From Bythopirellula sp. (lineage in GTDB: Bacteria; Planctomycetota; Planctomycetia; Pirellulales; Lacipirellulaceae): a stretch of DNA of 64,000 bases. Positions 5,096-63,422 of this stretch are shown here, in pieces. Under the pieces are notes generated by a model. That model made no database searches, was not told the DNA's origin, and saw nothing but the letters and a program-made list of their open reading frames with translations. Numbering within the stretch: the first letter of the stretch is position 1; each line of letters opens with the position of its first letter. Location of the stretch: positions 2,021-66,020 of the forward strand of contig JANQQA010000294.1 in NCBI GenBank assembly GCA_028285205.1. Direction: 5' to 3'. A program made the translations under genes and the position numbers.

Positions 5096-5610
5096 CCGCA
5101 ACTGAAATCACCCGCGAGCAGATCGAGACGGCAGAGGGCGAGGAGTTGAATCGGTTTTGTGAATTGCTGGTTTTTGGGGATGACCTGACGGCAAGGACTA
5201 GCTCAAACAATCCGCGCCTGATGGATGCGGTCAACAACAGCCGGTCCTGGGATAACTCCGATGTGGATGACATTTTAATAGCGATGCGAGTAAACGAACC
5301 GTCGAGCGTGGCACTCTGGCGACTTCGCGGGAATCGTCGTTATCGAGAACAACTAGAAAGGGACGTAGCCAACTGGCGAGCCAAGCCCCGCGACTTCGTC
5401 GGCGATGGGAATGCGGAGCGGGAGTTGAAGGCAGAGTTGCGAGAACGATTCGGTGGACTGTCCTATCAATACATTGAAGGCAAGCCGGGCAGTTATCACG
5501 AATACGATGTCGGCGCGTTTGTATCTAAGGGGTGTGGAGTTGGCGCGGACGAGCCAACAGCCCTCTGCCGAGCAGCGTGTCTCGCGTGCCTTGAGCAGAG
5601 AAAGGGGTAG
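5092..5610 (+). CDS. Hypothetical protein
   Basis: 172-aa ORF with an ATGA overlap to the upstream gene. Confidence 0.75.
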   Translation: MTATEITREQIETAEGEELNRFCELLVFGDDLTARTSSNNPRLMDAVNNSRSWDNSDVDDILIAMRVNEPSSVALWRLRGNRRYREQLERDVANWRAKPRDFVGDGNAERELKAELRERFGGLSYQYIEGKPGSYHEYDVGAFVSKGCGVGADEPTALCRAACLACLEQRKG

Positions 5611-8650: not shown

Positions 8651-8836
8651 ATGAACGTCAAACAGTGGGACGACGCCGGCAAACGCTGGTGGAACAACAA
8701 ATCGATTGAGCAGCGTCGCGCGATGTTACTATCGCCAGACGTGCAGGAAACTGGCAATTCGTCGTTGCAAACGCCCGCGGGCAGCCCGGCCCGCTGCTAC
8801 GAAGTGTTCGTGAAACCGCCGCCGAAGTCACGCTAA
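8651..8836 (+). CDS. Hypothetical protein
   Basis: 61-aa ORF. Confidence 0.55.
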   Translation: MNVKQWDDAGKRWWNNKSIEQRRAMLLSPDVQETGNSSLQTPAGSPARCYEVFVKPPPKSR

Positions 8837-13674: not shown

Positions 13675-15275
13675 AACACACACTCACAATCCTGCTGCTG
13701 CTGCTCTGCGGCACGGCACAGGCCGCACAGTACCAGACCGACAACTTCATCGCCGTTCACCCATCGGCTGAATTCGCGAAGCAGGTTGCGGAAACGGCAG
13801 AGCACTATCGGCGGGAACTCGCCATTTACTGGACCGGTTCTGAGTTTCCTCAATGGTCGGGAAAGTGCCGCATCACCGTCAAAAGCGGTCGTCTTGGCGC
13901 TGGTGGTGCGACGGCGTTCAGCTTCGATCAGGGCGAAGTGTTCGGCTGGAGAATGACCGTCCAAGGCTCACCGGAGCGCATTCTCGATAGCGTTGTGCCG
14001 CACGAAGTCAACCACACGATTTTCGCTTCCTATTTCCGCCGACCACTACCCCGCTGGTACGACGAGGGGGCCGCAACAACACTTGAACATCAGTCTGAGA
14101 AGACACGACAAAGGCAGATACTCAAGCAGGAATGGCGACGGCGGTATCGGCTGAACGACTTGTTCTCAATCACGGAATACCCGCGTGACATGCACAAGGT
14201 CATGGCGATGTATTCGCAGTCAGCGTCGGTTGCAGCGTACCTGATGTCGAAGGGTGATGCGCCAAAGTTTCTGGCATTCGGTGAGACAGCGTTGAGTGAC
14301 GGCTGGAACGATGCACTTCAACAGCATTACGGCATTCGCAACGTCAACGAGCTAGAGGCTGATTGGATTGTGTGGTTGGCCAAGAAGCCGCCAACCGTGC
14401 GGGTTGCTAAGGCAAAGCCGCGCCTGATTATGTTCGGTGCGCCATGGTGTGGGCCATGCCGAACAGCAAAGAGGGACCGCAAGCTATTTGAGAACGCGGG
14501 CTATGAGTTTGTTTACGTGGAACTGAGGCGTGACGGCAAGTCTGATAACCCAGAACTCCACAACAGCTTCTATCGCACGCTCAAAGATGCGGACAAATGG
14601 CAAGACTCGATGGCCCTGCCGATCTTTTGGATTGAAGGGACGGAAGAATACAGGACCGGTTACGGCGGAGCGCCGCCGGTTGTAATGTGGCTGGAAAATG
14701 TCATGCATGCGATCTTCGGGCCGTTGATACCTAATCCGAGCATTACACCACAAGAGGTAGAACCAACCTCTGATCCGCTCCTGCAAAGCATCAGGGCGCT
14801 GCGGTCTGACGTGGAATCCCTGAAGTCACGCAACCCAATCGAGAAAGCAAAGGGCTTGTTCGCAGCCAAAGGCGATATTGAACGTACATTGTCCGAACTG
14901 TCCGTTTTGCGTGAAGGACTGAAGGAGCAGGTCGAGAGCGGAACGCTTATTGCAGACTCGCTAGAAGAACTGAAGGAAACCAGTGGCCTGAGTCTGGAAA
15001 ACGCGACGAAGGCCACGGAAGACGCGAAGAAACTGGCTGGCGACCTGAAGGCATTCAGGGAGTCGAGTGGTATCGAGAAGATTCCAGCCGCATTGGAACT
15101 CGCCAAGGATGCCGCTGCGTTCAAGAAGTCGATGGGTGGCGTTAAAGAGGATGCGAGCGCCGCAAAGGAGTTTCTTGATGCGGCTGGAAGCCCCCGCAAC
15201 ATGTTCTGGAGTCTCGTAGGCATCATCATCGGTGCAATTCGCAAGCGAAAAGCTGTGCAAGTGGAGGCGGCATGA
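13671..15275 (+). CDS. Secreted peptidase-MA-like domain + thioredoxin (WCGPC) domain + coiled coil + C-terminal TM
   Basis: Signal peptide MKHTLTILLLLLCGTAQA. HEVNH..WYDEGAA (HExxH plus E, Peptidase_MA_2/DUF1570 style). FGAPWCGPCR. Long helical tail ending in MFWSLVGIIIGAI. Confidence 0.85.
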   Translation: MKHTLTILLLLLCGTAQAAQYQTDNFIAVHPSAEFAKQVAETAEHYRRELAIYWTGSEFPQWSGKCRITVKSGRLGAGGATAFSFDQGEVFGWRMTVQGSPERILDSVVPHEVNHTIFASYFRRPLPRWYDEGAATTLEHQSEKTRQRQILKQEWRRRYRLNDLFSITEYPRDMHKVMAMYSQSASVAAYLMSKGDAPKFLAFGETALSDGWNDALQQHYGIRNVNELEADWIVWLAKKPPTVRVAKAKPRLIMFGAPWCGPCRTAKRDRKLFENAGYEFVYVELRRDGKSDNPELHNSFYRTLKDADKWQDSMALPIFWIEGTEEYRTGYGGAPPVVMWLENVMHAIFGPLIPNPSITPQEVEPTSDPLLQSIRALRSDVESLKSRNPIEKAKGLFAAKGDIERTLSELSVLREGLKEQVESGTLIADSLEELKETSGLSLENATKATEDAKKLAGDLKAFRESSGIEKIPAALELAKDAAAFKKSMGGVKEDASAAKEFLDAAGSPRNMFWSLVGIIIGAIRKRKAVQVEAA

Positions 15276-36611: not shown

Positions 36612-37685
36612 TTACGCAGCGGTTGCGAAGACCGCATTGCGGCGACGGTTCAGGCAAATGAAGTTGTACGAAAGGTCGGTGAAGACCCTCCATTTGTTGT
36701 GTTGGCCCGGAGCCATGATCGGCTTCGACTCTTCGATGTAGTCGCCTTCCAGCACGACCGGGTAGAACGTGCCGTGATCGACCATGTAGACCGCGCCGGT
36801 TGCCGTCCCTGCGCCCGTACTATCGAGGTACGGAACCCAGATGATCGGGTGGCCGCGAAACATCAGTTCCCCCGCGCCCACGTCCTTGACGCCTCCATAC
36901 GGGGCGAGGTCGCGACCGAGGTTTTCGTTCTGCGATTCACCAATGTCTTCGAGCGACGCCACGGTCGCTTCGTCAACGTAGATGCGCAGGTTTTTGCCAG
37001 CGTTCCCCGTGTAGTCGTGAGACTTCACCGGCGACTTCCAGCCGATCTTGCGTTTGCCCGTCCGCATCTTCTTGATGAGGTCCGGCTTATCGACCGTCGT
37101 GTAAGTCACGCTGTAGTTCTTGTAGTTCGCTGCGGTTGTCAGATCGACGCCCGCAACTGTCGTGTGACCGCTCGCCGCACCACCCGTGAATCCGTCCGTC
37201 GCGTTGTACACGATGTAATACGGCAGCCCATAGGGGGTGAGGTTTTCGGTCGAAGAACTCGGCGCAGCCCATGCCTTTTCTTCCAACTCCTGCGCCAAGT
37301 CGATCATCGCACCTGTGCGCCGAGGGAGCAGGACGTTGGTAATCATGGACTTGCCGCGATTCATCAGCGCTTCGCGACGATCAAACGCCCAACTGGTGAT
37401 CGCGTGTCGCCACGGGACTTGCAGTTGAGTCGTCAGATCGGGAATGCCCGCGCTGTCAGTGGCATCGAGGCCGACGTGGGACGCAGCGCCCGATGTCTTG
37501 TACATCAGATTGCGCTGAATTCCGTACCCGTCACCAAACATGACCTTGTCGGCTTTGAGCCACTTGCCCATCACTTCGTAGTCTTGAAGCTCTGCGGCAA
37601 TCTGCTCGAACTTGTTTGGTCCGAGGTCACGCAGCGTCAACGCTACGAGATCGCCGTAATCATCGGCTTGAACAGTAACTGCCAT
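36612..37685 (-). CDS. Major capsid protein
   Basis: 357 aa, positioned between the scaffold-like gene and the decoration-like gene. Confidence 0.85.
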   Translation of the reverse strand: MAVTVQADDYGDLVALTLRDLGPNKFEQIAAELQDYEVMGKWLKADKVMFGDGYGIQRNLMYKTSGAASHVGLDATDSAGIPDLTTQLQVPWRHAITSWAFDRREALMNRGKSMITNVLLPRRTGAMIDLAQELEEKAWAAPSSSTENLTPYGLPYYIVYNATDGFTGGAASGHTTVAGVDLTTAANYKNYSVTYTTVDKPDLIKKMRTGKRKIGWKSPVKSHDYTGNAGKNLRIYVDEATVASLEDIGESQNENLGRDLAPYGGVKDVGAGELMFRGHPIIWVPYLDSTGAGTATGAVYMVDHGTFYPVVLEGDYIEESKPIMAPGQHNKWRVFTDLSYNFICLNRRRNAVFATAA

Positions 37686-41863: not shown

Positions 41864-43744
41864 TTACACATAGTCCCGCCAGTACGATGGCTGATCCGCC
41901 ATCTTCCGCAATTGCTCCCTCTGATTCCGCCGCCACTGAAACGAACCCAGCTTCGCCTCTTCCGGCCTCTCCTCCGGCTTCGGGGCCGGAATGTCCTCAA
42001 CGCCAAACCACGCCAGCGCACACGCAATCGCCGAGTCACCGTGCCCCTTGCCCTTTGACCCGTCGTCCGACGTTCCCTGCTCGGCCGCGTGAACCAGAAT
42101 ACCACCCTTGAAGAAGTATTGCCCGCACTCCGTCACGATGCGACCGGACTTGATGACGCACTTGTCCATCGCAATCGCCTGCTCTAGGTTGGACAGCACC
42201 TTTTCGCCCTTGTCTTGATTCTGGTATCCCGGCTTGTTGGTTTTTTTTCTGAAGTCACTGTGGCCCGATTCGCGGTAGTACAGATTCGGATAGCTGGCGC
42301 GCAGCACTTCGCGAATAAACTCCGTCCCACCACCCCCGGCATTCACTTCGGGAACCATGTAGGCGTGATGAAACCACTTCCCCATCGCAACAGCCAGTTT
42401 GGCGAACTCCCACGGCTTGATTTTGTTGCTACTGAACTCAGCCACTTGATGCCCCGTGTTTTTGTCGATCACCACAATCGCCGAGTAGGCCGAACCCGTG
42501 CCGCGTGAAATATCAACCCCCATCGAGTAGTGACCTTCCGGTACAAGCAGCGCGCCTTCACTGTTGACGAGGCTGCACCACAACTCCACGTTCCCGGAAG
42601 CGTGCTTCATAAAGTACGGCTCTAACGTGTCTTCGTCGTATTGAAGTTTTCCCCTGATAACCGGGTCTTCTGTCAGACCTTTCGCCTTTTGCAGAATGTC
42701 GCCGCTGAACAGCCGGGACGTGGCACCACCGAAATCCTTGTCCAGTTCCGCTGCGATGGAAGCGGGGGATGAGTTTGGACGGCGGCACTCGAAGTCGTAA
42801 TACGGCGACCGCATCTTGCCGTCGAGAATGAACTTGTAGGCGTAAGGATGCTTGTACTTGGGGTCCAGTTTTTCCAGTTTGCCATCGTGAGACGTGTAAA
42901 GCCCTGCCGCCTTTTCCGCATCGTCCTTCCAGTCGATGTCGATTAACAACCGGTCTTTCGTGTCGTCCATTACCGCATCGTAGAACGCACCGGACTGGCC
43001 ACGTTTCTTATTCGGGGTGGAGACGTAGACGCGGGAGCGGGTGACGTGTTGCACAGAATCCATCACTTCCACGTCTTTGCCGACCGGGAAGGAATGCAGT
43101 TCGTCCATGAACCACCACAATTTTCTTCCTCCACGGCCCATGTTTCCGCCGGTCGCAAAGCCGGAGATCGTCGAACCGTTCCGCGCATTGACGATTACAT
43201 GCGTCTTCGTGCGGTGATACCAGTCCACCCCTTCCGTCCCCCGCATCCACAACGGCAAACGGTTGATGATGAACTTGATCTTGGAGAACAGCGAGTCGGG
43301 GTTTTCGGGATCGTCTACGGAGTTCTCATCTTTCGACGACATGCCGATGTGCGTCTGGTCGTGGAATCGCCAGTCCCACTCAGCCAGAGCAATGAACATC
43401 CAAGTTGCGCCAGTTTCGCGAGATTTGAGCACGCAGATGTCGCGCTTGCCCAAGTCCTTGACGGCCCGCATGACGACGCGGTCTTGATAATCGCGAGTCA
43501 GAAACGGAATCTCTTTGGCTGTCTCGCCCCACTTCGTATCCTGCTGCCAAGTGGCTGCGTCTCTCGGTTCCAGCAACCAGTGCATGAGGTTGAAGTAGTA
43601 GAGCGGGTCGCGCGAGCAGGCGATCCACACCTCTTGCCGGTACTCTTCGTCGTAAACGCAGCGTTCGAGAACGTGCTTGCGCCATGCGACGTGAGCAGCA
43701 GGGTTCTTTGGGCAGTAGCGTTTGTAGAATTCGTTAGTCGCCAA
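41864..43744 (-). CDS. terL: Terminase large subunit
   Basis: 626 aa with the ATPase region VLKSRETGATWMFIALAE and a C-terminal nuclease-size domain. TTG start. Confidence 0.85.
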   Translation of the reverse strand: MATNEFYKRYCPKNPAAHVAWRKHVLERCVYDEEYRQEVWIACSRDPLYYFNLMHWLLEPRDAATWQQDTKWGETAKEIPFLTRDYQDRVVMRAVKDLGKRDICVLKSRETGATWMFIALAEWDWRFHDQTHIGMSSKDENSVDDPENPDSLFSKIKFIINRLPLWMRGTEGVDWYHRTKTHVIVNARNGSTISGFATGGNMGRGGRKLWWFMDELHSFPVGKDVEVMDSVQHVTRSRVYVSTPNKKRGQSGAFYDAVMDDTKDRLLIDIDWKDDAEKAAGLYTSHDGKLEKLDPKYKHPYAYKFILDGKMRSPYYDFECRRPNSSPASIAAELDKDFGGATSRLFSGDILQKAKGLTEDPVIRGKLQYDEDTLEPYFMKHASGNVELWCSLVNSEGALLVPEGHYSMGVDISRGTGSAYSAIVVIDKNTGHQVAEFSSNKIKPWEFAKLAVAMGKWFHHAYMVPEVNAGGGGTEFIREVLRASYPNLYYRESGHSDFRKKTNKPGYQNQDKGEKVLSNLEQAIAMDKCVIKSGRIVTECGQYFFKGGILVHAAEQGTSDDGSKGKGHGDSAIACALAWFGVEDIPAPKPEERPEEAKLGSFQWRRNQREQLRKMADQPSYWRDYV

Positions 43745-51284: not shown

Positions 51285-51367
51285 ATTGTAGCGTGGAAAT
51301 TATTTTTGTCAAATCGTCAATTTTTATGTGATTGCCCCTTGCAATTGTTGACGACTTGTCAATAATG
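51285..51367. promoter_or_regulatory. Divergent promoter/operator region
   Basis: Minus strand: TTGACA (51312-51307), 16 nt, TACAAT (51290-51285), then 6 nt to the ATG. Plus strand: TTGCAA (51339-51344), 17 nt, ATAATG (51362-51367). Inverted 15-mers TTGTCAAATCGTCAA (51306-51320) and TTGACGACTTGTCAA (51348-51362). Confidence 0.55.
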
Positions 51368-51429
51368 GTGTGCATGCAAAACAAAACCCGCCACGAACTG
51401 AATCGCAGCGGGCAATGTATTCGAGTGTC

Positions 51430-51523
51430 GGAGGGTTGGCAGAGTGGCCGAATGCAGGTGACTGATAATCACCCAAAGCGTCTCATCAGGGCGTTTTCGC
51501 GGGTTCGAATCCCGCACCCTCCG
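51430..51523 (+). tRNA. Class II tRNA with a Ser-type body and anticodon GAU (Ile)
   Basis: Acceptor GGAGGGT/ACCCTCC and discriminator G73. D stem GCA/TGC with loop GAGTGGCCGAA. Anticodon stem GGTGA/TCACC with loop CTGATAA. A 25-nt variable region. T arm GCGGG-TTCGAAT-CCCGC. CCA is not encoded. Confidence 0.85.
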
Positions 51524-56309: not shown

Positions 56310-56599
<290 letters not shown>

Positions 56600-56617: not shown

Positions 56618-57784
56618 ATGGCGGATTCTAACAAACCAAAGAAGCCATATCCAGAGTTCCCCTTGTTCCCCCACGCGACCAAGCGGTGGGCCAAGAAGAT
56701 ACGGGGCAAGCTGCACTATTTCGGTCCATGGCGTGATCCTGATGGTGCCTTGGAAAAATACCTGCAACAGAAGGATGCACTCCACGCTGGCCGCACGCCG
56801 CGATCCGTCGATGGTCTGTCACTGTTGGACCTTTGCAATAATTTCCTCACAGCCAAGATGTCGCTGCTGGACTCTGGCGAACTCTCGGCGCAAATGTTTG
56901 CCCGCTACTTCCGCGCTTGCGAAAGAGTGCAGGCCCGATTTGGTAAGAACAGGTTTGTGGACGATATCACCATCGTTGAGTTTAATGAGCTTCGCTCCAT
57001 CTTGACAAAGGACAAGAGTCCCGTCACTGTGCGCAATGATGTGCGGGACATTCGGTCGATTTTTAAGTATGCCCACGATGCCGGGCTTATTGATGAGCCG
57101 GTGAGGATGGGGCCGAATTTCAAGCAGCCATCCAAGTCTGTACTTCGCAAGGAGCGGACACGCCATGGGCCTCGCATGTTTGAACCCTCGGAACTGCTCG
57201 CCATCCTCGAAGCGGCCAATCCTGCGATGAAAGCCATGGTTTTACTGGGTGTCAATTGTGGGTATGGAAACACGGACGTTGCGAGCCTGCCGCAATCAGC
57301 GATCGTAGACGGCTGGGTGGACTTCCCCCGCCCCAAGACGGGAGTTGGTCGGCGATGTCCATTGTGGGACGAAACATCCAAAGCCATCAGCGAAGCAATA
57401 GCGATCCGCCCCAAGCCAAAGAATAAGGCCGACGAGAACTTGTGTTTTGTGACCATTCAAGGGAACCGCTGGACGCGAGTGTCGCCAGGCAAAAAAGACC
57501 CAACGAAATTCAGTAAGGTCGATTCGGTGGGGCAGCGGTTTGGGAAACTGCTGAAATCTCTCGACATCAATGGAAGGCATCGGCTCGGATTCTACTCGCT
57601 ACGCCGCTGCTTCGAGACGATTGCGGGAGAATCGACCGACCAAGTCGCCGTCGATGCCATCATGGGCCACGCAGACCAATCCATGGCAGCCGTGTATCGC
57701 GAAAAGATCAGCGACCAGCGATTTCAGAACGTCGTCAACGTCGTTCATCGCTGGCTTTTTCAATCTGTGCACGCACAGATTTGA
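56618..57784 (+). CDS. int: Tyrosine integrase
   Basis: C-terminal HRLGFYSLRRCFET..IMGHADQSMAAVY (H-x-x-R .. H .. Y). ATG 56618 within ORF 56603..57784. Confidence 0.9.
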   Translation: MADSNKPKKPYPEFPLFPHATKRWAKKIRGKLHYFGPWRDPDGALEKYLQQKDALHAGRTPRSVDGLSLLDLCNNFLTAKMSLLDSGELSAQMFARYFRACERVQARFGKNRFVDDITIVEFNELRSILTKDKSPVTVRNDVRDIRSIFKYAHDAGLIDEPVRMGPNFKQPSKSVLRKERTRHGPRMFEPSELLAILEAANPAMKAMVLLGVNCGYGNTDVASLPQSAIVDGWVDFPRPKTGVGRRCPLWDETSKAISEAIAIRPKPKNKADENLCFVTIQGNRWTRVSPGKKDPTKFSKVDSVGQRFGKLLKSLDINGRHRLGFYSLRRCFETIAGESTDQVAVDAIMGHADQSMAAVYREKISDQRFQNVVNVVHRWLFQSVHAQI

Positions 57785-57894: not shown

Positions 57895-58068
57895 ATGAAA
57901 GACAGCGACCTACCAATTCTCAACATTGAAACCTATGCCCCTTATTGGTTCGTTCAACTCTACCAAGCAAACACAAGAGGCGAGCACGAGGTTGTGTCAG
58001 AGTCCCAGAAGAGGTTACGTGACTTGGGATACGACATTGTTTTGCGTGAACCGAAGGTGGCGATATGA
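57895..58068 (+). CDS. Hypothetical protein
   Basis: ATG 57895 with GAGGAG upstream (MKDSDLPILNIETYAPYWF..). Confidence 0.6.
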   Translation: MKDSDLPILNIETYAPYWFVQLYQANTRGEHEVVSESQKRLRDLGYDIVLREPKVAI

Positions 58069-58313
58069 GTCTGCTGTCGCCCCAAAAGGCCGCCGAGCGA
58101 TTGGGCGTCAAGGCGTCCACTGTGATTGCATGGATCAGGACTGGTCAACTTGACGGAATGGACATGAGCAGGCAGCCCGGCGTTGGTAAGCCCCGGTTTA
58201 AGGTGTCGGAGGCAGCATTGATTGCGTTTCAGGAAAAGCGAAGAGTAGTTCCGCCCGCAAAAACCATTCGACGTAGACGGCAAATCAAGGGTGTGATTCA
58301 GTTTTTCAAGTAA
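58065..58313 (+). CDS. xis: Excisionase-type HTH protein
   Basis: MSLLSPQKAAERLGVKASTVIAWIRTGQL matches the MerR/excisionase HTH. Adjacent to the integrase. Confidence 0.75.
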   Translation: MSLLSPQKAAERLGVKASTVIAWIRTGQLDGMDMSRQPGVGKPRFKVSEAALIAFQEKRRVVPPAKTIRRRRQIKGVIQFFK

Positions 58314-58324
58314 CCACGTCAGCC

Positions 58325-58582
58325 ATGACAGCTACACCAAGTACGTCAAGTCAACGGAGTGAGAGAACAATGGGATCTGGCAGAATAGCAGTTGACGCCG
58401 CTATCGGTGGCCCATGGGAAATCTTGGGTGAGTTCATTGAAGCAAGTGGCCATGAAGATTGCAGCGGGCTTCGCCGGTATCTGGGAAGCGCTTTGGCTGA
58501 GAATGATTACGAACGATTCAACCGAATGCTTCCGACGACACGCTCAAAGTTCGATGCGTTGAGAACACGAATAGACACCTAA
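58325..58582 (+). CDS. Hypothetical protein
   Basis: 85-aa ORF. Confidence 0.65.
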   Translation: MTATPSTSSQRSERTMGSGRIAVDAAIGGPWEILGEFIEASGHEDCSGLRRYLGSALAENDYERFNRMLPTTRSKFDALRTRIDT

Positions 58583-58639
58583 CCCGGCAGCGGCACACAC
58601 GGCGATTCGAGTTCGCCAGCCGGGCTTTCTGACAACAAT
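58583..58639 (+). ncRNA. tRNA-like minihelix A plus TTCTGACAACAAT box
   Basis: CCCGGC..GGCGA-TTCGAGT-TCGCC-A-GCCGGG, then CTTTCTGACAACAAT. It starts right after a stop codon. Confidence 0.5.
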
Positions 58640-58738
58640 CAATTCAGCGGTTCTCAATCAACCGTGCAAGCGAAGGGGGTAACAAAATGAACCACGGGGG
58701 CGAACGCTGATTGAGGGCGGGTCGTGCCCGGCACACAT

Positions 58739-58824
58739 GGTCTCCGAAGCACTTTCGGCAGTTGCGCTGCGTAGCTACATCAAACGGACAAGCAGAGGAC
58801 TGGGTTCGATTCCCAGCGGAGACC
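58739..58824 (+). ncRNA. tRNA-like element C (8-bp acceptor + canonical T arm, non-canonical core)
   Basis: GGTCTCCG (58739-58746) pairs with CGGAGACC (58817-58824). T arm CTGGG-TTCGATT-CCCAG abuts the 3' strand. No D or anticodon arm can be drawn in the 53-nt core. Confidence 0.5.
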
Positions 58825-59059
58825 CTTTCAATGAAAATGTGGCGTGTGAGTATCGGCAACTCACTGTAACGCGGGGACGCAAACGCCGTTGGGAGCGGGA
58901 AACGGATGCTACTGAGAAGTTGTAACCCAGTGGAGTGGCAAGACCACCGAAGATTGTTTGAGTCAATCTCTCGTGCAACACCCTAACCAAGTACGACACC
59001 CCGACAAAGGAAAGTTGATAACTAAACCTGCCTTGCGAGTAACAAGGAACTCGATGGTA

Positions 59060-59126
59060 AGCAATCCAGGTGGGCGGCACGTGACGCTGCGGTTCGAGTC
59101 CGCAAATTGCTTCTTCTGACAACAAT
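59060..59126 (+). ncRNA. tRNA-like minihelix B plus TTCTGACAACAAT box
   Basis: AGCAAT..GCGGCAC..TGCGG-TTCGAGT-CCGCA-A-ATTGCT, then TCTTCTGACAACAAT. A diverged copy of element A. Confidence 0.5.
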
Positions 59127-59201
59127 TCTCTGTCACCCCCACTTTGGGCGAAAGAGGTTCGCCCACCGAGACGCTACCGTTGCGCACTGAGGCTTCCGGA
59201 T

Positions 59202-59768
59202 ATGGGCAAACCATCGAACTGCAAATGTCCGGGAAGGGGCTTCAAGGAGAAAGGTGACCGATGGGTTGTCGTCAATCGTCGTGAGGGGCGGTCATCTCAA
59301 CTGAAATGTTTGGAGTGTGGGTGGAAGTGGTACTCGAAATGTCGCTACGTCGCACTACTTGAAGACCACACAGAAAAGTCGAGATCGGGAATGACGGACA
59401 ACGACATACTCAATCGCCTCAAAGACAAATCGCTTGCCGTGGATCAGGCAACCGGGCGTGTCAAATCGTTTTCGGCTCGATACCCCAACGGCAAGATTCT
59501 GCGTGAAATCGAGCGCGAGTCGGAAGGCAGCACTTACCAGTTTGTCGAGGTCACGCATCAGGGGATGCAAAAGAAAATCTCTGTTCACCGGCTCGTTTGG
59601 ATGAGCGCCAACATGCGACTCGTTCCGGACGGGTTCGATGTCAACCACAAGCGAGGAAAGCGAGTGCCAAACCATAACGGCATTCACAATTTGGAACTCA
59701 TGGAAAGCAGTCGAAACAGGGCAATGAACGCGATTGACGATCCAACGCAGGAGTACCTGCCTTTTTAA
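59202..59768 (+). CDS. HNH homing-endonuclease-like protein
   Basis: HRLVWMSANMRLVPDGFDVNHKRGKRVPNHNGIHNLELMESSRNR (HNH_3 pattern). N-terminal zinc ribbon CLECG. Confidence 0.85.
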   Translation: MGKPSNCKCPGRGFKEKGDRWVVVNRREGRSSQLKCLECGWKWYSKCRYVALLEDHTEKSRSGMTDNDILNRLKDKSLAVDQATGRVKSFSARYPNGKILREIERESEGSTYQFVEVTHQGMQKKISVHRLVWMSANMRLVPDGFDVNHKRGKRVPNHNGIHNLELMESSRNRAMNAIDDPTQEYLPF

Positions 59769-59876: not shown

Positions 59877-60137
59877 ATGCCTTTTGAATTGAGTGCAATC
59901 CATGATGGAACAATTGCGGCGAGAGACATGAATGATGGCGACGTGGGCGTGATTACTGCGTGGGGTGAAATCCACGGTTACGACGGACAATTGGTGCAGA
60001 TGGCCCATGGCGACCGAATCGTAGTTCTTGGCGAAAGCAGTCACAAAGGGTGGAACGAGGCATCGGAACTTACTGAAACATGCCGCGTTCGCCTTCTCGA
60101 AGACGGCGAACAACTGACCTACCGTAAGCCCGATTGA
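59877..60137 (+). CDS. Hypothetical protein (paralogue of 60346..60591)
   Basis: Shares DGTIAARDMNDGDVGVI.. and ..CRVRLLEDGEQLTY with the downstream paralogue. Confidence 0.7.
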   Translation: MPFELSAIHDGTIAARDMNDGDVGVITAWGEIHGYDGQLVQMAHGDRIVVLGESSHKGWNEASELTETCRVRLLEDGEQLTYRKPD

Positions 60138-60345: not shown

Positions 60346-60591
60346 ATGGGATTAAGAGTTAAACAACGAGGTGATGGTTCTATTTGCGCGTCTGACATGC
60401 AAAACGGTGACTCTGGAGAAATTGTTGCGTGTGAAGTCAACAGCTACATCGGAAGTGTGGTGTGCCGCTCAGGCAAACGACTGGAGCGAATTGGGCAGCG
60501 AGATTGTGGGTGGGACGGCGCGGGCAACCTGCCGCCCAGTTTTCGCGTTCGCCTTCTCCAACCCGGCGACGAACTGGTCTACGAGGAGTAA
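60346..60591 (+). CDS. Hypothetical protein (paralogue of 59877..60137)
   Basis: DGSICASDMQNGDSGEI.. and ..FRVRLLQPGDELVY. Confidence 0.7.
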   Translation: MGLRVKQRGDGSICASDMQNGDSGEIVACEVNSYIGSVVCRSGKRLERIGQRDCGWDGAGNLPPSFRVRLLQPGDELVYEE

Positions 60592-60710
60592 GCCGTGACG
60601 TGGCTCATTGAATCCTTCTCCCACTACATCGGCCTGTGGTACGTCGCCATTCCGGTTTCATTATGGGCGGTCGCGCTCATTGGGTGGGTGATTACGAGGA
60701 AACAGTCGAA

Positions 60711-61601
60711 ATGAACAATGACGAATTACGTCGCATCACTGAAGCGGTCAACCAATACAACCCGTCGCATGTCTTCGCCCTGTTCAGCGGCGGTGATGAT
60801 TCGCTGGCGATGACGAGCATTGCCTCACAGCATCCAGCGTTTAGCGGCTGCGTCCACATCGATACGGGCATCGGCGTGTGGGACGATCCCGACGACCGCC
60901 GAAGTGTAGCAAGGAAGTTTGTTGAGCGAACGTGCGATGAGCGTGGTTGGCCGTTGAGGATATTCGAGGCGGTTGAAAACCGAAAGGGCGACGGCACACC
61001 AGACCCGCAAATTTACGAACAGATGGTGCTGGAACACGGCTTTCCCGGTGCGAACGAGATTGGGCACCGAAAGATGTACAACCGGCTCAAGGAGCGACCT
61101 CTGCGGTGCCTGAAGCGGTCGGTTGGTAGCCCGAAGCAAAAGCTCGTGTTCGTTGCTGGGTGCCGCTCTGACGAATCTACGCGGCGAATGGGCAACACCA
61201 AACCAATCGATGAGCAGGGCCGCGATATCTGGGTCAACATCATTCACAACTGGACCAAAGACGACTGCCTCTCGCACATCAATCAATGCGGCCTCGAACG
61301 CAATCCCTGCTCGGTCAACCTCTGCAAATCCGGCGAGTGCATGTGTGGTGCGTTCGCAGAACGAGGGGAACTGAATGCGGAACTGCGGGCCTGCTATCCC
61401 GAATTCGTAGCGTGGTTGCAGGACTTAGAGCGTCGCGTGTGGGAAGCGGGATTCCCGTGGAAGTGGGACGAGTCGCCGCCACAGTGGTTTCTCGACCAGC
61501 GCAAGGGGCAAGGGATGATGTTCGACATGGTGCCTGAGTACGACGGTCCCATGCCAATGTGCCAGTCGTGCATCGTTAATCAATCAGGCGTGGAATCGTG
61601 A
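60711..61601 (+). CDS. PAPS-reductase-family (PP-loop ATP pyrophosphatase) protein
   Basis: FALFSGGDDSLAMT is a PP-loop (SGGxDS). CKSGECMCGAF is a Cys cluster. ATG 60711 within ORF 60636..61601. Confidence 0.8.
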   Translation: MNNDELRRITEAVNQYNPSHVFALFSGGDDSLAMTSIASQHPAFSGCVHIDTGIGVWDDPDDRRSVARKFVERTCDERGWPLRIFEAVENRKGDGTPDPQIYEQMVLEHGFPGANEIGHRKMYNRLKERPLRCLKRSVGSPKQKLVFVAGCRSDESTRRMGNTKPIDEQGRDIWVNIIHNWTKDDCLSHINQCGLERNPCSVNLCKSGECMCGAFAERGELNAELRACYPEFVAWLQDLERRVWEAGFPWKWDESPPQWFLDQRKGQGMMFDMVPEYDGPMPMCQSCIVNQSGVES

Positions 61602-62528: not shown

Positions 62529-63422
62529 ATGACTGATCTGTTTGAACAGCAGAAAGACGATGTCGTGATTGATGCTGAGATCGATCATCCCGAAGTCGGG
62601 ACCACTGAGATTGCGACTCGCGAAACGTCGTACCCAACTCTGTCGGCCAATGCGCTGATCCAGCGGGCGATTGATAGCGGGCTTCAAGTCGATTCGCTGA
62701 AAGAACTGCTGGCGATGCGGCGGGAACTGAAAGCGGAAGAGGCTCGCGAACAGTTCTTCGATGCTCTTGCGAAGTTTCAGGACGAGTGCCCGCCCATTGA
62801 GAAACAGAAGAAAGCGGACAAATACCATTACGCTCCGTTCGACCACATTGTCTCGGTGATTAAACCGCACCTGAAGGAGAACGGATTCAGTTACACATTC
62901 GACGCCGAGTACCTTGAGGTTGGGAACCAGCAGGTACAGCGGGTGACGTGCCACCTGCACCATCGGGCGGGACACACTGAATCGTCGGTGTTCTCGGCAC
63001 CAGGGGCGGGCACGCGAGCGATGAACGTGACGCAAATTGCGGCATCGGCATTGACCTACGGAAAGAGGTACGCACTGTGCAGCGTCTTGGGATTAACGGT
63101 CGGCAACGACACGGACGGTTACGTTCCGCCTGAACAGAACGGAACGCCAGATCGTGACGCCAACGCTTCGACGGCACCGGCCCGCGATGAGCCGGAACCG
63201 GAAGTGTCCGCAATCGAAGCAAACAACCTGTATCACGACTGGAAGACTTACCGCGAACAGTCGGGGTTGGACCAAAGCGATGAAGCATGGTTTGAGTGGT
63301 TTATAGAAGCAACTGGGATGCCACCAAATATCGCGAAGAACAGAAATCTATGGTCCGCGAGCGACTACCGCAAAGCATGCTCCGCCTTTGACAACATGGC
63401 CCCAGGTTTGAGGCAGCAATGA
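62529..63422 (+). CDS. ERF-family single-strand annealing protein
   Basis: KADKYHYAPFDHIVSVIKPHLKENGFSYTF..TYGKRYALCSVLGL matches the ERF pattern. Confidence 0.8.
   Translation: MTDLFEQQKDDVVIDAEIDHPEVGTTEIATRETSYPTLSANALIQRAIDSGLQVDSLKELLAMRRELKAEEAREQFFDALAKFQDECPPIEKQKKADKYHYAPFDHIVSVIKPHLKENGFSYTFDAEYLEVGNQQVQRVTCHLHHRAGHTESSVFSAPGAGTRAMNVTQIAASALTYGKRYALCSVLGLTVGNDTDGYVPPEQNGTPDRDANASTAPARDEPEPEVSAIEANNLYHDWKTYREQSGLDQSDEAWFEWFIEATGMPPNIAKNRNLWSASDYRKACSAFDNMAPGLRQQ

Follow-up and report, generated by a model that had tools for sequence, protein, structure and literature searches.

In the 64,000-nt window of Bythopirellula sp. contig JANQQA010000294.1 analyzed here, which is a portion of the genome of a temperate tailed phage, three RNA elements (A, B, and C) that reproduce the top half of a tRNA lie within a spacer cassette. 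The cassette is situated between a lysogeny operon (integrase, an excisionase-like helix-turn-helix protein, and orf85) and an early recombination/replication operon headed by a gene for an HNH endonuclease. The feature, seen in one genome, is real and unusual, and it belongs to a known kind, the tRNA-like RNA element, as a variant. We tentatively favor, with somewhat less than even confidence, the view that A, B, and C imitate the upper half of a tRNA and are recognized by enzymes that process tRNA ends, so that the transcript would be cut between the int-xis and early operons.

A and B are built on a common plan, comprising an outer helix, a mismatch at 7:66, a bulge on the 5' side only, a perfect 5-bp T stem, a pyrimidine-rich trailer, and a 13-mer (Table 1). 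A previous description of this DNA, made from the letters alone and called here the sequence-only reading, had presented A and B as diverged copies of one acceptor/T-arm design; all the sequences that it quoted are where it placed them, and the design is borne out by pairing that survives changes on both sides of the stems. Two details needed adjustment. The 6-bp acceptor stem described for B is present, but with A(-1):U73 included it extends to an unbroken run of 7 pairs (A has 6), and the stretch after the T arm, described as U-rich, amounts only to CUUUCU in A and UCUUCU in B. Judging from the identical 13-mer at an identical offset, together with the GCGGCAC box and the T loop that they hold in common, A and B are paralogs related by descent. 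The 13-mer TTCTGACAACAAT is found nowhere else in the window; in both elements it follows two bases behind the minihelix, with an identical distance from the T loop, a coincidence with a chance of 4^-13. The two elements form imperfect direct repeats 487 bp apart, and the flanks outside the 43-nt repeat are unrelated.

The comparison of A with B provides the best evidence that their structure has been maintained. Seven of the 11 stem pairs are changed on both sides (5 of the 6 outer pairs and 2 of the 5 T-stem pairs), all of these still pair, and none of the 11 is broken. A MAFFT alignment of full-length A and B put the 5' strands wrongly, and spliced top halves were therefore used; in the alignment of A, B, and C, pairing is seen in 94% of the cells and two-sided changes in 9 of 12 pairs, compared with 27 to 44% pairing in slid registers. 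Since the structure guided this alignment and C had been picked for its pairing, the A/B comparison is the only independent evidence. As for predicted folding, the tRNA-like fold of A (-17.8 kcal/mol) is within 0.1 of the minimum free energy (MFE; -17.9), that of B ties with the MFE at -16.8 kcal/mol, and the acceptor and T arm of C belong to its MFE structure.

C is an 8/5 minihelix, or equivalently a 7/5 helix plus G-1:C73, with a noncanonical core. Its acceptor helix (GGUCUCCG/CGGAGACC) makes eight Watson-Crick pairs, G-1:C73 among them, stacked on the T arm CUGGG-UUCGAUU-CCCAG, in agreement with the sequence-only reading. The same reading had held that the core could not be drawn as D and anticodon arms, which needs correction: a D-like arm can be drawn (GCAC...GUUGC, loop UUUCGGCA), along with a 4-bp CUGC/GCAG stem closing a 21-nt loop and a 4-nt AGGA linker, and there is no canonical anticodon arm. 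The D-like loop, UCGGCAG, includes GG. The pentamer CGGCA is common to this loop and to the boxes of A and B, and GGCA is also the D-loop sequence in a tRNA-Leu half borne by the phage; we infer that CGGCA may be a D-loop remnant able to form a tRNA elbow.

All three units thus have an intact top half with a canonical T loop, and in all three the bottom half is nonworking. The retained top half, the missing bottom half, the compensating changes between A and B, and the invariant T loop together suggest selection on a structure read by the tRNA machinery. Random decay of tRNA genes would not be expected to leave the top half in every unit, and a plain hairpin fits this pattern poorly as well.

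Table 1. Positions, in the window, of the elements, their parts, and the genes discussed
Feature	Position	Strand	Description and basis
Element A, tRNA top-half mimic	58583-58625	+	6-bp acceptor-like helix, A7.A66 mismatch, 11-nt 5' bulge, 5-bp T arm, C73; own scan
A acceptor 5' strand	58583-58589	+	CCCGGCA
A box	58590-58596	+	GCGGCAC, inside the 11-nt 5' bulge
A T arm	58601-58617	+	GGCGA-TTCGAGT-TCGCC (loop UUCGAGU)
A acceptor 3' strand	58618-58624	+	AGCCGGG
A C73	58625	+
13-mer, trailer of A	58627-58639	+	TTCTGACAACAAT
Element B, paralog of A	59059-59113	+	7-bp outer helix including A-1:U73, C7.A66 mismatch, 21-nt 5' bulge; own scan
B acceptor 5' strand	59060-59066	+	AGCAATC
B box	59074-59080	+	GCGGCAC, inside the 21-nt 5' bulge
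B T arm	59088-59104	+	TGCGG-TTCGAGT-CCGCA
B acceptor 3' strand	59105-59111	+	AATTGCT
13-mer, trailer of B	59114-59126	+	TTCTGACAACAAT
Element C	58739-58824	+	8-bp acceptor helix (G-1:C73 + 7 bp) stacked on T arm, 53-nt core
C acceptor 5' strand	58739-58746	+	GGTCTCCG
C T arm	58800-58816	+	CTGGG-TTCGATT-CCCAG
C acceptor 3' strand	58817-58824	+	CGGAGACC
Copy of the 5' part of A	58727-58740	+	CCCGGCACACATGG (CCCGGCA[GCGGCA]CACACGG); directly before C and overlapping it; repeat and motif searches
Spacer between A and B	58640-59058	+	Holds C; no credible gene
Hairpin in the 75-nt leader from B to the HNH start codon	59146-59164	+	GGGCGAA-AGAGG-UUCGCCC; read from sequence
Tyrosine integrase (int)	56618-57784	+	Pfam
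Excisionase-like HTH_17 protein (xis)	58065-58313	+	Pfam
orf85, predicted final open reading frame of the int-xis operon	58325-58582	+	Open reading frame list; stop codon abuts element A; coding status uncertain
Free-standing HNH endonuclease gene	59202-59768	+	First gene past the cassette; Pfam HNH_3; PHROG HNH families
Two small paralogous open reading frames 3' of the HNH gene (86 and 81 aa)	59877-60137 and 60346-60591	+	Weak SH3-like match
PAPS-reductase-like gene	60636-61601	+
ERF recombinase	62529-63422	+
tRNA-Leu(GAG) 5' half, ending in the anticodon loop (attP)	~56434-56497 (half itself ~56434-56472)	-	Upstream of int
Large terminase subunit	41867-43744	-
Major head protein	36615-37685	-

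To assess how often such units arise by chance, the window was scanned for a 5-bp T stem with a TTCRANN loop directly followed by a 7-nt strand whose complement (at least 6 of 7 pairs) lies within 120 nt upstream. On both strands together the scan returned seven units, namely, A, B, C, a real tRNA at position 51430, and three weak units with G-U-rich stems inside genes, whereas 60 dinucleotide shuffles averaged 1.45 units, with no shuffle above 5. This shuffle rate corresponds to about 0.007 units per 620-nt single-strand stretch, and the Poisson estimate for three units in one such stretch is about 1e-5 after correction for the number of windows. Since A, B, and C lie on the same (+) strand within 530 nt, the cluster is not a chance pattern.

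None of the RNA classes compared here accounts for the elements. Neither A, B, nor C was reported by the Rfam tRNA model (RF00005, gathering threshold of 29 bits), even at an E value of ≤10 on 1.1 kb. What they share with tRNAs is the acceptor helix set on a 5-bp T arm with a UUCRANY-type loop; canonical tRNAs are rejected for A and B, in which bulges of 11 and 21 nt replace the D and anticodon arms, and for C, which has a D-like arm but no 7-nt anticodon loop. ARAGORN called C a tRNA-Cys(ACA) and, in intron mode, a tRNA-Val(GAC) with a 14-nt insert, and both calls require a mismatched or irregular anticodon arm. The best Rfam model for C and B was mascRNA (RF01684), with 26 and 18.7 bits, respectively, against a gathering threshold of 42.5, and A matched no Rfam model. 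For C, tRNA-Sec (RF01852) is rejected at 19.1 bits against a threshold of 47, with neither a UCA loop nor a variable arm; the bacterial tRNA-His pair G-1:C73 is present, but full tRNA-His identity is rejected, there being no GUG anticodon in a 7-nt loop. A tmRNA is rejected as well: ARAGORN made no such call, Rfam gave no match, and G3:U70 is absent, the 3:70 pair being C:G in the two paralogs and U:A in C.

The sequence-only reading had envisaged a domain of the Y RNA or tRNA-like-structure style. This part of it is not supported, as the YrlA/Y RNA model (RF02553) found no match in 1.1 kb with an E value limit of 10, nor in the whole window with a limit of 1, and the order of parts in A, B, and C is not circularly permuted, unlike that of YrlA. 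The model itself works, since it detects a stretch of another phage contig (L147, 14497-14556) at 41.6 bits. Altogether, none of the tRNA, tmRNA, and YrlA models that the sequence-only reading had proposed to run matched A, B, or C. No Ro60/TROVE protein was found among the window proteins scanned with Pfam, a scan that left some small open reading frames (ORFs) aside. The Rfam search also led us to reject a riboswitch. A globally structured RNA of about 620 nt finds no support, the fold of the whole 619-nt cassette being no more stable than those of shuffles (z = +1.27), and the 13-mer as a repeated promoter or operator is rejected, no further copies or variants of it occurring in the window.

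A protein-coding gene in the spacer is equally rejected, in keeping with the earlier description of the region as ORF poor. The six spacer ORFs had no Pfam or PHROGs match, and their codon scores ranged from -0.05 to -0.31, compared with +0.05 to +0.16 in the neighboring real genes. The possibility that ORF 58737-58925 (ORF62) has homologs, raised by the sequence-only reading as a way of refuting it, was checked among 1.84 billion representatives: a single match was returned (E value, 7e-6), spread in 12 stretches over a 1,411-aa protein, and we regard it as spurious. A 7-codon mini-ORF (MNHGGER) occurs between A and C at window positions 58687 to 58710 (+), with AAGGGGG, a strong Shine-Dalgarno-like box, upstream at the appropriate distance. 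The upstream border of the spacer is less sharp: orf85 had no Pfam and no PHROG match, and its codon score (-0.155) is within the range of noncoding frames. Because of this poor codon usage, the untranslated spacer may begin as early as 58314, right behind the excisionase-like gene.

The genes flanking the cassette are all on the + strand. The phage host is probably a planctomycete, since the homologs of the integrase bear names from Pirellulales and Planctomyces. Homologs of the HNH protein (46 to 59% identical) occupy unrelated gene contexts, in replication or early operons without a spacer, and the HNH gene is on this showing a mobile, free-standing endonuclease gene. The two small paralogous ORFs behind it have a 39-nt stretch in common that is 82% identical.

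Apart from the cassette, the window contains a single tRNA above the Rfam threshold (56 bits), a type II tRNA of 94 to 95 nt at 51430-51523 (+), just behind a divergent promoter/operator-like region (51290-51380). Its D arm is Ser/Leu-like, its variable arm has about 9 bp, and its discriminator is G73, but its anticodon is GAU (Ile). If charged by seryl-tRNA synthetase, it would place serine at isoleucine codons, much like missense allo-tRNAs (PMC5389517). A tRNA-Ile(gat) called by ARAGORN in another locus (L139) is unrelated to it.

We propose a role in processing or punctuation because of where A and B lie. A is flush with the stop codon of the final predicted lysogeny ORF, beginning at the base after the TAA of ORF 58325-58582, and B precedes the first early gene by 75 to 90 nt, its 13-mer ending 75 nt before the HNH ATG at 59202; both junctions had been correctly read before, and the tRNA-like processing role then suggested fits the anatomy of the elements. 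This half of a tRNA, the top half, is recognized by RNase P, RNase Z, the CCA-adding enzyme, and T-loop modification enzymes. According to the model that we favor, A, B, and C would be transcribed within a long plus-strand RNA and bound by the host enzymes that read the tRNA top half. RNase P would act at the 5' edge and RNase Z or another nuclease in the pyrimidine-rich trailer, and the CCA-adding and T-loop modification enzymes may act too. RNase P cutting at A would place the 3' end of the int-xis message at its stop codon or beside it, a cut at B would set free an early message carrying a defined leader, and small, stable tRNA-like RNAs would be released. As a precedent, one YrlA whose acceptor-like stem is 7 bp long is an RNase P substrate to which CCA is added (PMC4201824).

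The trailer may also belong to this mimicry. In a Planctomycetaceae metagenome-assembled genome (L099, 6165-6232, +), a 3' fragment of tRNA-Met, reaching from the anticodon stem to the discriminator with no 5' half, is followed by TTTCTGACAAC, and the native tRNA trailers in loci with relatives of the integrase, which we take to be planctomycete, begin U-rich, as do the trailers of A and B. These two observations suggest that the A/B trailer imitates a tRNA 3' trailer. The tRNA-Met fragment adjoins a divergent gene and GTGATACAG repeats and is probably the junction of an integrated element.

Several results speak against processing by the tRNA machinery. None of the three elements encodes CCA, and the first base is C1 in A and A1 in B, in contrast to the tRNAs found by our scan in integrase-relative loci, whose 5' acceptor strands all begin with G. 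The covariation comes entirely from paralogs within one genome, with C selected for its pairing, and the folding energies of A, B, and C are no better than those of shuffles (z scores of -1.5 to +0.7). Moreover, DNA pattern, BLAST, and neighbor-protein searches found no differing second genome with the cassette, and the closest phages, identified through the PAPS-reductase-like gene (L100 and L102, with 76% and 60% identity), had no such unit in the stretch retrieved.

The search for relatives covered several collections. A single further contig (L010) shows this arrangement, and since it is 100% identical to the window, it offers no variation. BLAST of the cassette against the phage collection gave no match. 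In IMG/VR, the pattern of T loop, gap, and 13-mer gave four matches, all by chance inside A+T-rich genes, and a stricter version gave none; in 185,579 genomes, one per species, the stricter pattern gave five matches, of which four belong to one Caldilineaceae locus without stems and one is a Planctomycetaceae tRNA-Met fragment. Pattern scans of both sets thus yielded no second unit of the A/B type. The 3' half of C had no match in IMG/VR, nor did the HNH, integrase, and 321-aa proteins have close relatives there. The 80 loci with integrase relatives have only int and xis in common with the window, and in 80 further viral loci the scan count was near the number expected from the shuffle rate of the window.

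These searches brought to light other tRNA-like units. A 130-kb viral contig (L147) carries in tandem, at 13880-14700 (+), four or more tRNA-like modules in permuted order (T arm, closed acceptor hairpin, and D arm), each preceded by GGGCCGGAG...CGGTTAYC; one of them is a YrlA match with 41.6 bits (gathering threshold, 69), and the contig also contains a tRNA core with 53.5 bits and a poor acceptor stem. Another viral contig (L159), G+C rich and with proteins that look acidic, carries at 8770-8817 (+) a 48-nt minihelix consisting of a top half only, GCCCGUU / CCGAG-UUCGAGU-CUCGG / GGCGGGC with a 17-nt bulge, followed by ACTACAAT. It lies in an 83-nt spacer before a small gene that precedes a probable large-terminase gene, and it could be an independent analog of A and B or a chance match. 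Near HNH homologs, one contig (L006) has an aberrant tRNA at 5506-5591, about 400 nt upstream of the endonuclease gene, with 34 bits on the Rfam tRNA model and a 17-nt anticodon loop, and a second (L005) has two oversized tRNA-like units (1276-1415 and 1510-1624) with cores of 84 and 109 nt.

The main rival to processing signals, which we hold to be rather unlikely, is that A, B, and C are relics of a phage tRNA islet beside a homing endonuclease, i.e., tRNA or tRNA-like genes truncated and duplicated by endonuclease-provoked recombination and without a present RNA function. The mobility of the HNH gene would fit such a history, as would the imperfect direct repetition of A and B, the tRNA-like units just described beside two HNH homologs, and the lack of any relative conserving the cassette; a precedent is SegB of phages T4 and T6, which sits in tRNA arrays and drives their segmental amplification (PMC13096335). 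Decay should, however, break stems, whereas every T stem is perfect and A and B still pair through seven two-sided changes, and it is the bottom half that is missing and the top half that is intact in three of three units. A and B do not begin with G and so are unlikely to be recent copies of working tRNAs. The HNH family also differs from that of the GIY-YIG enzyme SegB. In most contexts of the HNH homologs, no T-loop motif is found nearby. Measured against islets of the SegB type, in which a homing endonuclease gene lies within 1 kb of tRNA genes, the picture is mixed: the HNH gene begins 75 nt past the 13-mer of B, its neighbors are not tRNAs, and among the other homologs only that of L006 has a tRNA within 500 nt.

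The proposal that A, B, and C are processed can itself be sharpened into one in which anticodon-less minihelices serve as dedicated punctuation, RNase P cutting exactly at the int-xis stop codon and the released units, including a nondecoding tRNA-His-like acceptor, acting as small RNAs; in this precise form we judge it unlikely. A decoy function seems decidedly unlikely. The RNAs would titrate a host factor that binds the acceptor/T-arm half, either a tRNA-targeting defense nuclease or toxin or an aminoacyl-tRNA synthetase, and C could accept histidine without decoding. The build from top halves only, the canonical T loops, and G-1:C73 in C count in favor of such a sponge, and 8-bp His microhelices are chargeable. 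The same phage carries the odd type II tRNA with a GAU anticodon, and phage tRNA loci are known counterdefense tools (PMC13096335). Against this, about 45 window proteins scanned include no defense-related or tRNA-enzyme gene, and a decoy would leave unexplained both the conserved 13-mer trailer and the position of A flush with a stop codon.

Could the repeats act as DNA rather than RNA? The T-loop-like sequences and the 13-mers might be recognition, cleavage, or recombination sites for the HNH enzyme or the joints of an inserted 487-bp "RNA moron." The identical 13-mers do bracket a 487-bp segment, a third partial copy of the 5' part of A stands before C, and SegB offers a precedent for recognition of T-loop DNA, its cleavage site RAWTSGAAC (PMC13096335) being read here as a T-loop sequence in DNA form. 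We nevertheless find this idea very doubtful: a DNA site has no need of an acceptor complementarity kept through two-sided changes, sequence similarity ends at the borders of the 43-nt repeat, and the T-loop motif is not consistently present near HNH homologs, which lends no support to it as a target of the enzyme.

It is very improbable that the elements are ordinary hairpin terminators or stabilizers with an accidental likeness to T arms, or that they form a chance pattern, and the earlier proposal that A and B double as terminators finds no support. The position of A right behind an ORF and its G+C-rich outer helix followed by CUUUCU would suit a terminator, and a terminator scan does flag the T arm of B, but it flags nothing else and its count is below the shuffle rate. 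The outer helix of B is A/U rich, neither element has a real U tract, and a clear terminator of the usual type looks different (e.g., in L128); A and B are not convincing terminators. Three canonical T loops on one strand are, besides, unexpected by chance. To attachment-site material, whether tRNA 3' fragments of attP or scars of other integrating elements, we give almost no credence: int and the excisionase-like gene do lie just upstream, but attP is elsewhere, its role being filled by the tRNA-Leu half positioned upstream of int as in relatives, and att fragments lack the complementary 5' acceptor strand that A, B, and C all carry.

The attachment site has peculiarities of its own. Here attP corresponds to the 5' half of a tRNA and not to the usual 3' half, and a promoter-like box of its own, TTGACACTACAAT, accompanies this half. 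At most of the 80 metagenomic integrase-relative loci, a tRNA gene lies divergently about 200 to 280 bp upstream of int, the position held in the window by the tRNA-Leu half, and for this reason the integrase family seems to bring along the 5' portion and promoter of the tRNA that it targets. The tRNAs at those loci are complete (Arg, Met, Leu, Lys, Thr, Gly, Asp, Phe, or Ser). The attP core is bracketed by the palindrome GGTGTCAnTGACACC, which stands at 56311-56325 and again at 56583-56597, about 270 bp apart, with further TGACACC half-sites at 56529 and 56541; these are probably binding sites for a recombinase or regulator. A GACTTACGTCA-like motif occurs 5 to 25 nt downstream of various tRNA genes beside integrase relatives (L011, L023, L029, L030, L040, L042, L050, L070, L071, L074, and L085) and was not found in that form at the attP of the window.

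Most of what is known of tRNA mimicry in bacterial viruses concerns complete tRNAs and YrlA. If our favored interpretation is true, a top-half module set flush with a stop codon and repeated with compensating changes would be a compact and portable RNA-processing signal, by which phages could borrow RNase P and RNase Z to separate lysogeny from early messages. Such modules would form an RNA class missed or mislabeled by current annotation tools, as illustrated by the tRNA-Cys that ARAGORN makes of C, and they could provide a short processing tag for planctomycete genetics. Even if A, B, and C were only relics, they would be a record of homing endonucleases reshaping tRNA islets.

Among the known systems to which the cassette can be compared, the SegB tRNA arrays of T4 and T6 (PMC13096335) similarly place a free-standing homing endonuclease gene within 100 to 600 bp of T-loop-bearing genes, with signs of local duplication, but the enzyme here is of the HNH and not the GIY-YIG type and its neighbors are not functional tRNAs. 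YrlA (RF02553; PMC4201824), encoded by some phages, is likewise a tRNA mimic with a T arm, a D-like element, and an acceptor-like stem. It differs in being circularly permuted, with a loop-closed acceptor-like stem, a Ro60-binding stem, and an adjacent Ro60 gene, none of which was found here. With its 13 stacked pairs (8/5), C resembles bacterial tRNA-Sec and, counted as 7/5 plus G-1:C73, equally bacterial tRNA-His; allo-tRNAs (PMC5389517) belong to the same comparison group, and the D-like stem of C can be drawn with 5 of 6 pairs. C differs in lacking a 7-nt anticodon loop, a UCA or GUG anticodon, and a long variable arm.

For A and B, the closest architectural match is the tRNA-like domain of tmRNA, which also combines an acceptor helix and a T arm with a D-loop analog lacking a D stem and has no anticodon arm, although A, B, and C have no G3:U70, mRNA-like region, or pseudoknots. 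The mascRNA and menRNA of MALAT1 and MEN-beta (RF01684) are small, cloverleaf-like modules with an acceptor, a T arm, and a reduced anticodon arm that RNase P and RNase Z release from the 3' part of a long transcript; they form a vertebrate nuclear family, and the likeness is confined to generic acceptor/T-arm features. tRNA-like elements processed by RNase P within mRNA or phage RNA include mitochondrial tRNA punctuation, the precursor of the C4 antisense RNA of phages P1 and P7, and the M3 RNA of phage phi80. The mitochondrial elements are complete tRNAs, unlike A, B, and C, and the cassette has no sequence relation to any of these RNAs; it has three units, true T loops, and a common trailer. 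As in them, an acceptor/T-like stacked helix within a longer transcript could direct processing, here in the control region between two operons of a temperate phage. Understood as punctuation, A, B, and C would be a tRNA-based counterpart of lambda sib retroregulation and of the tRNA punctuation of mitochondria.

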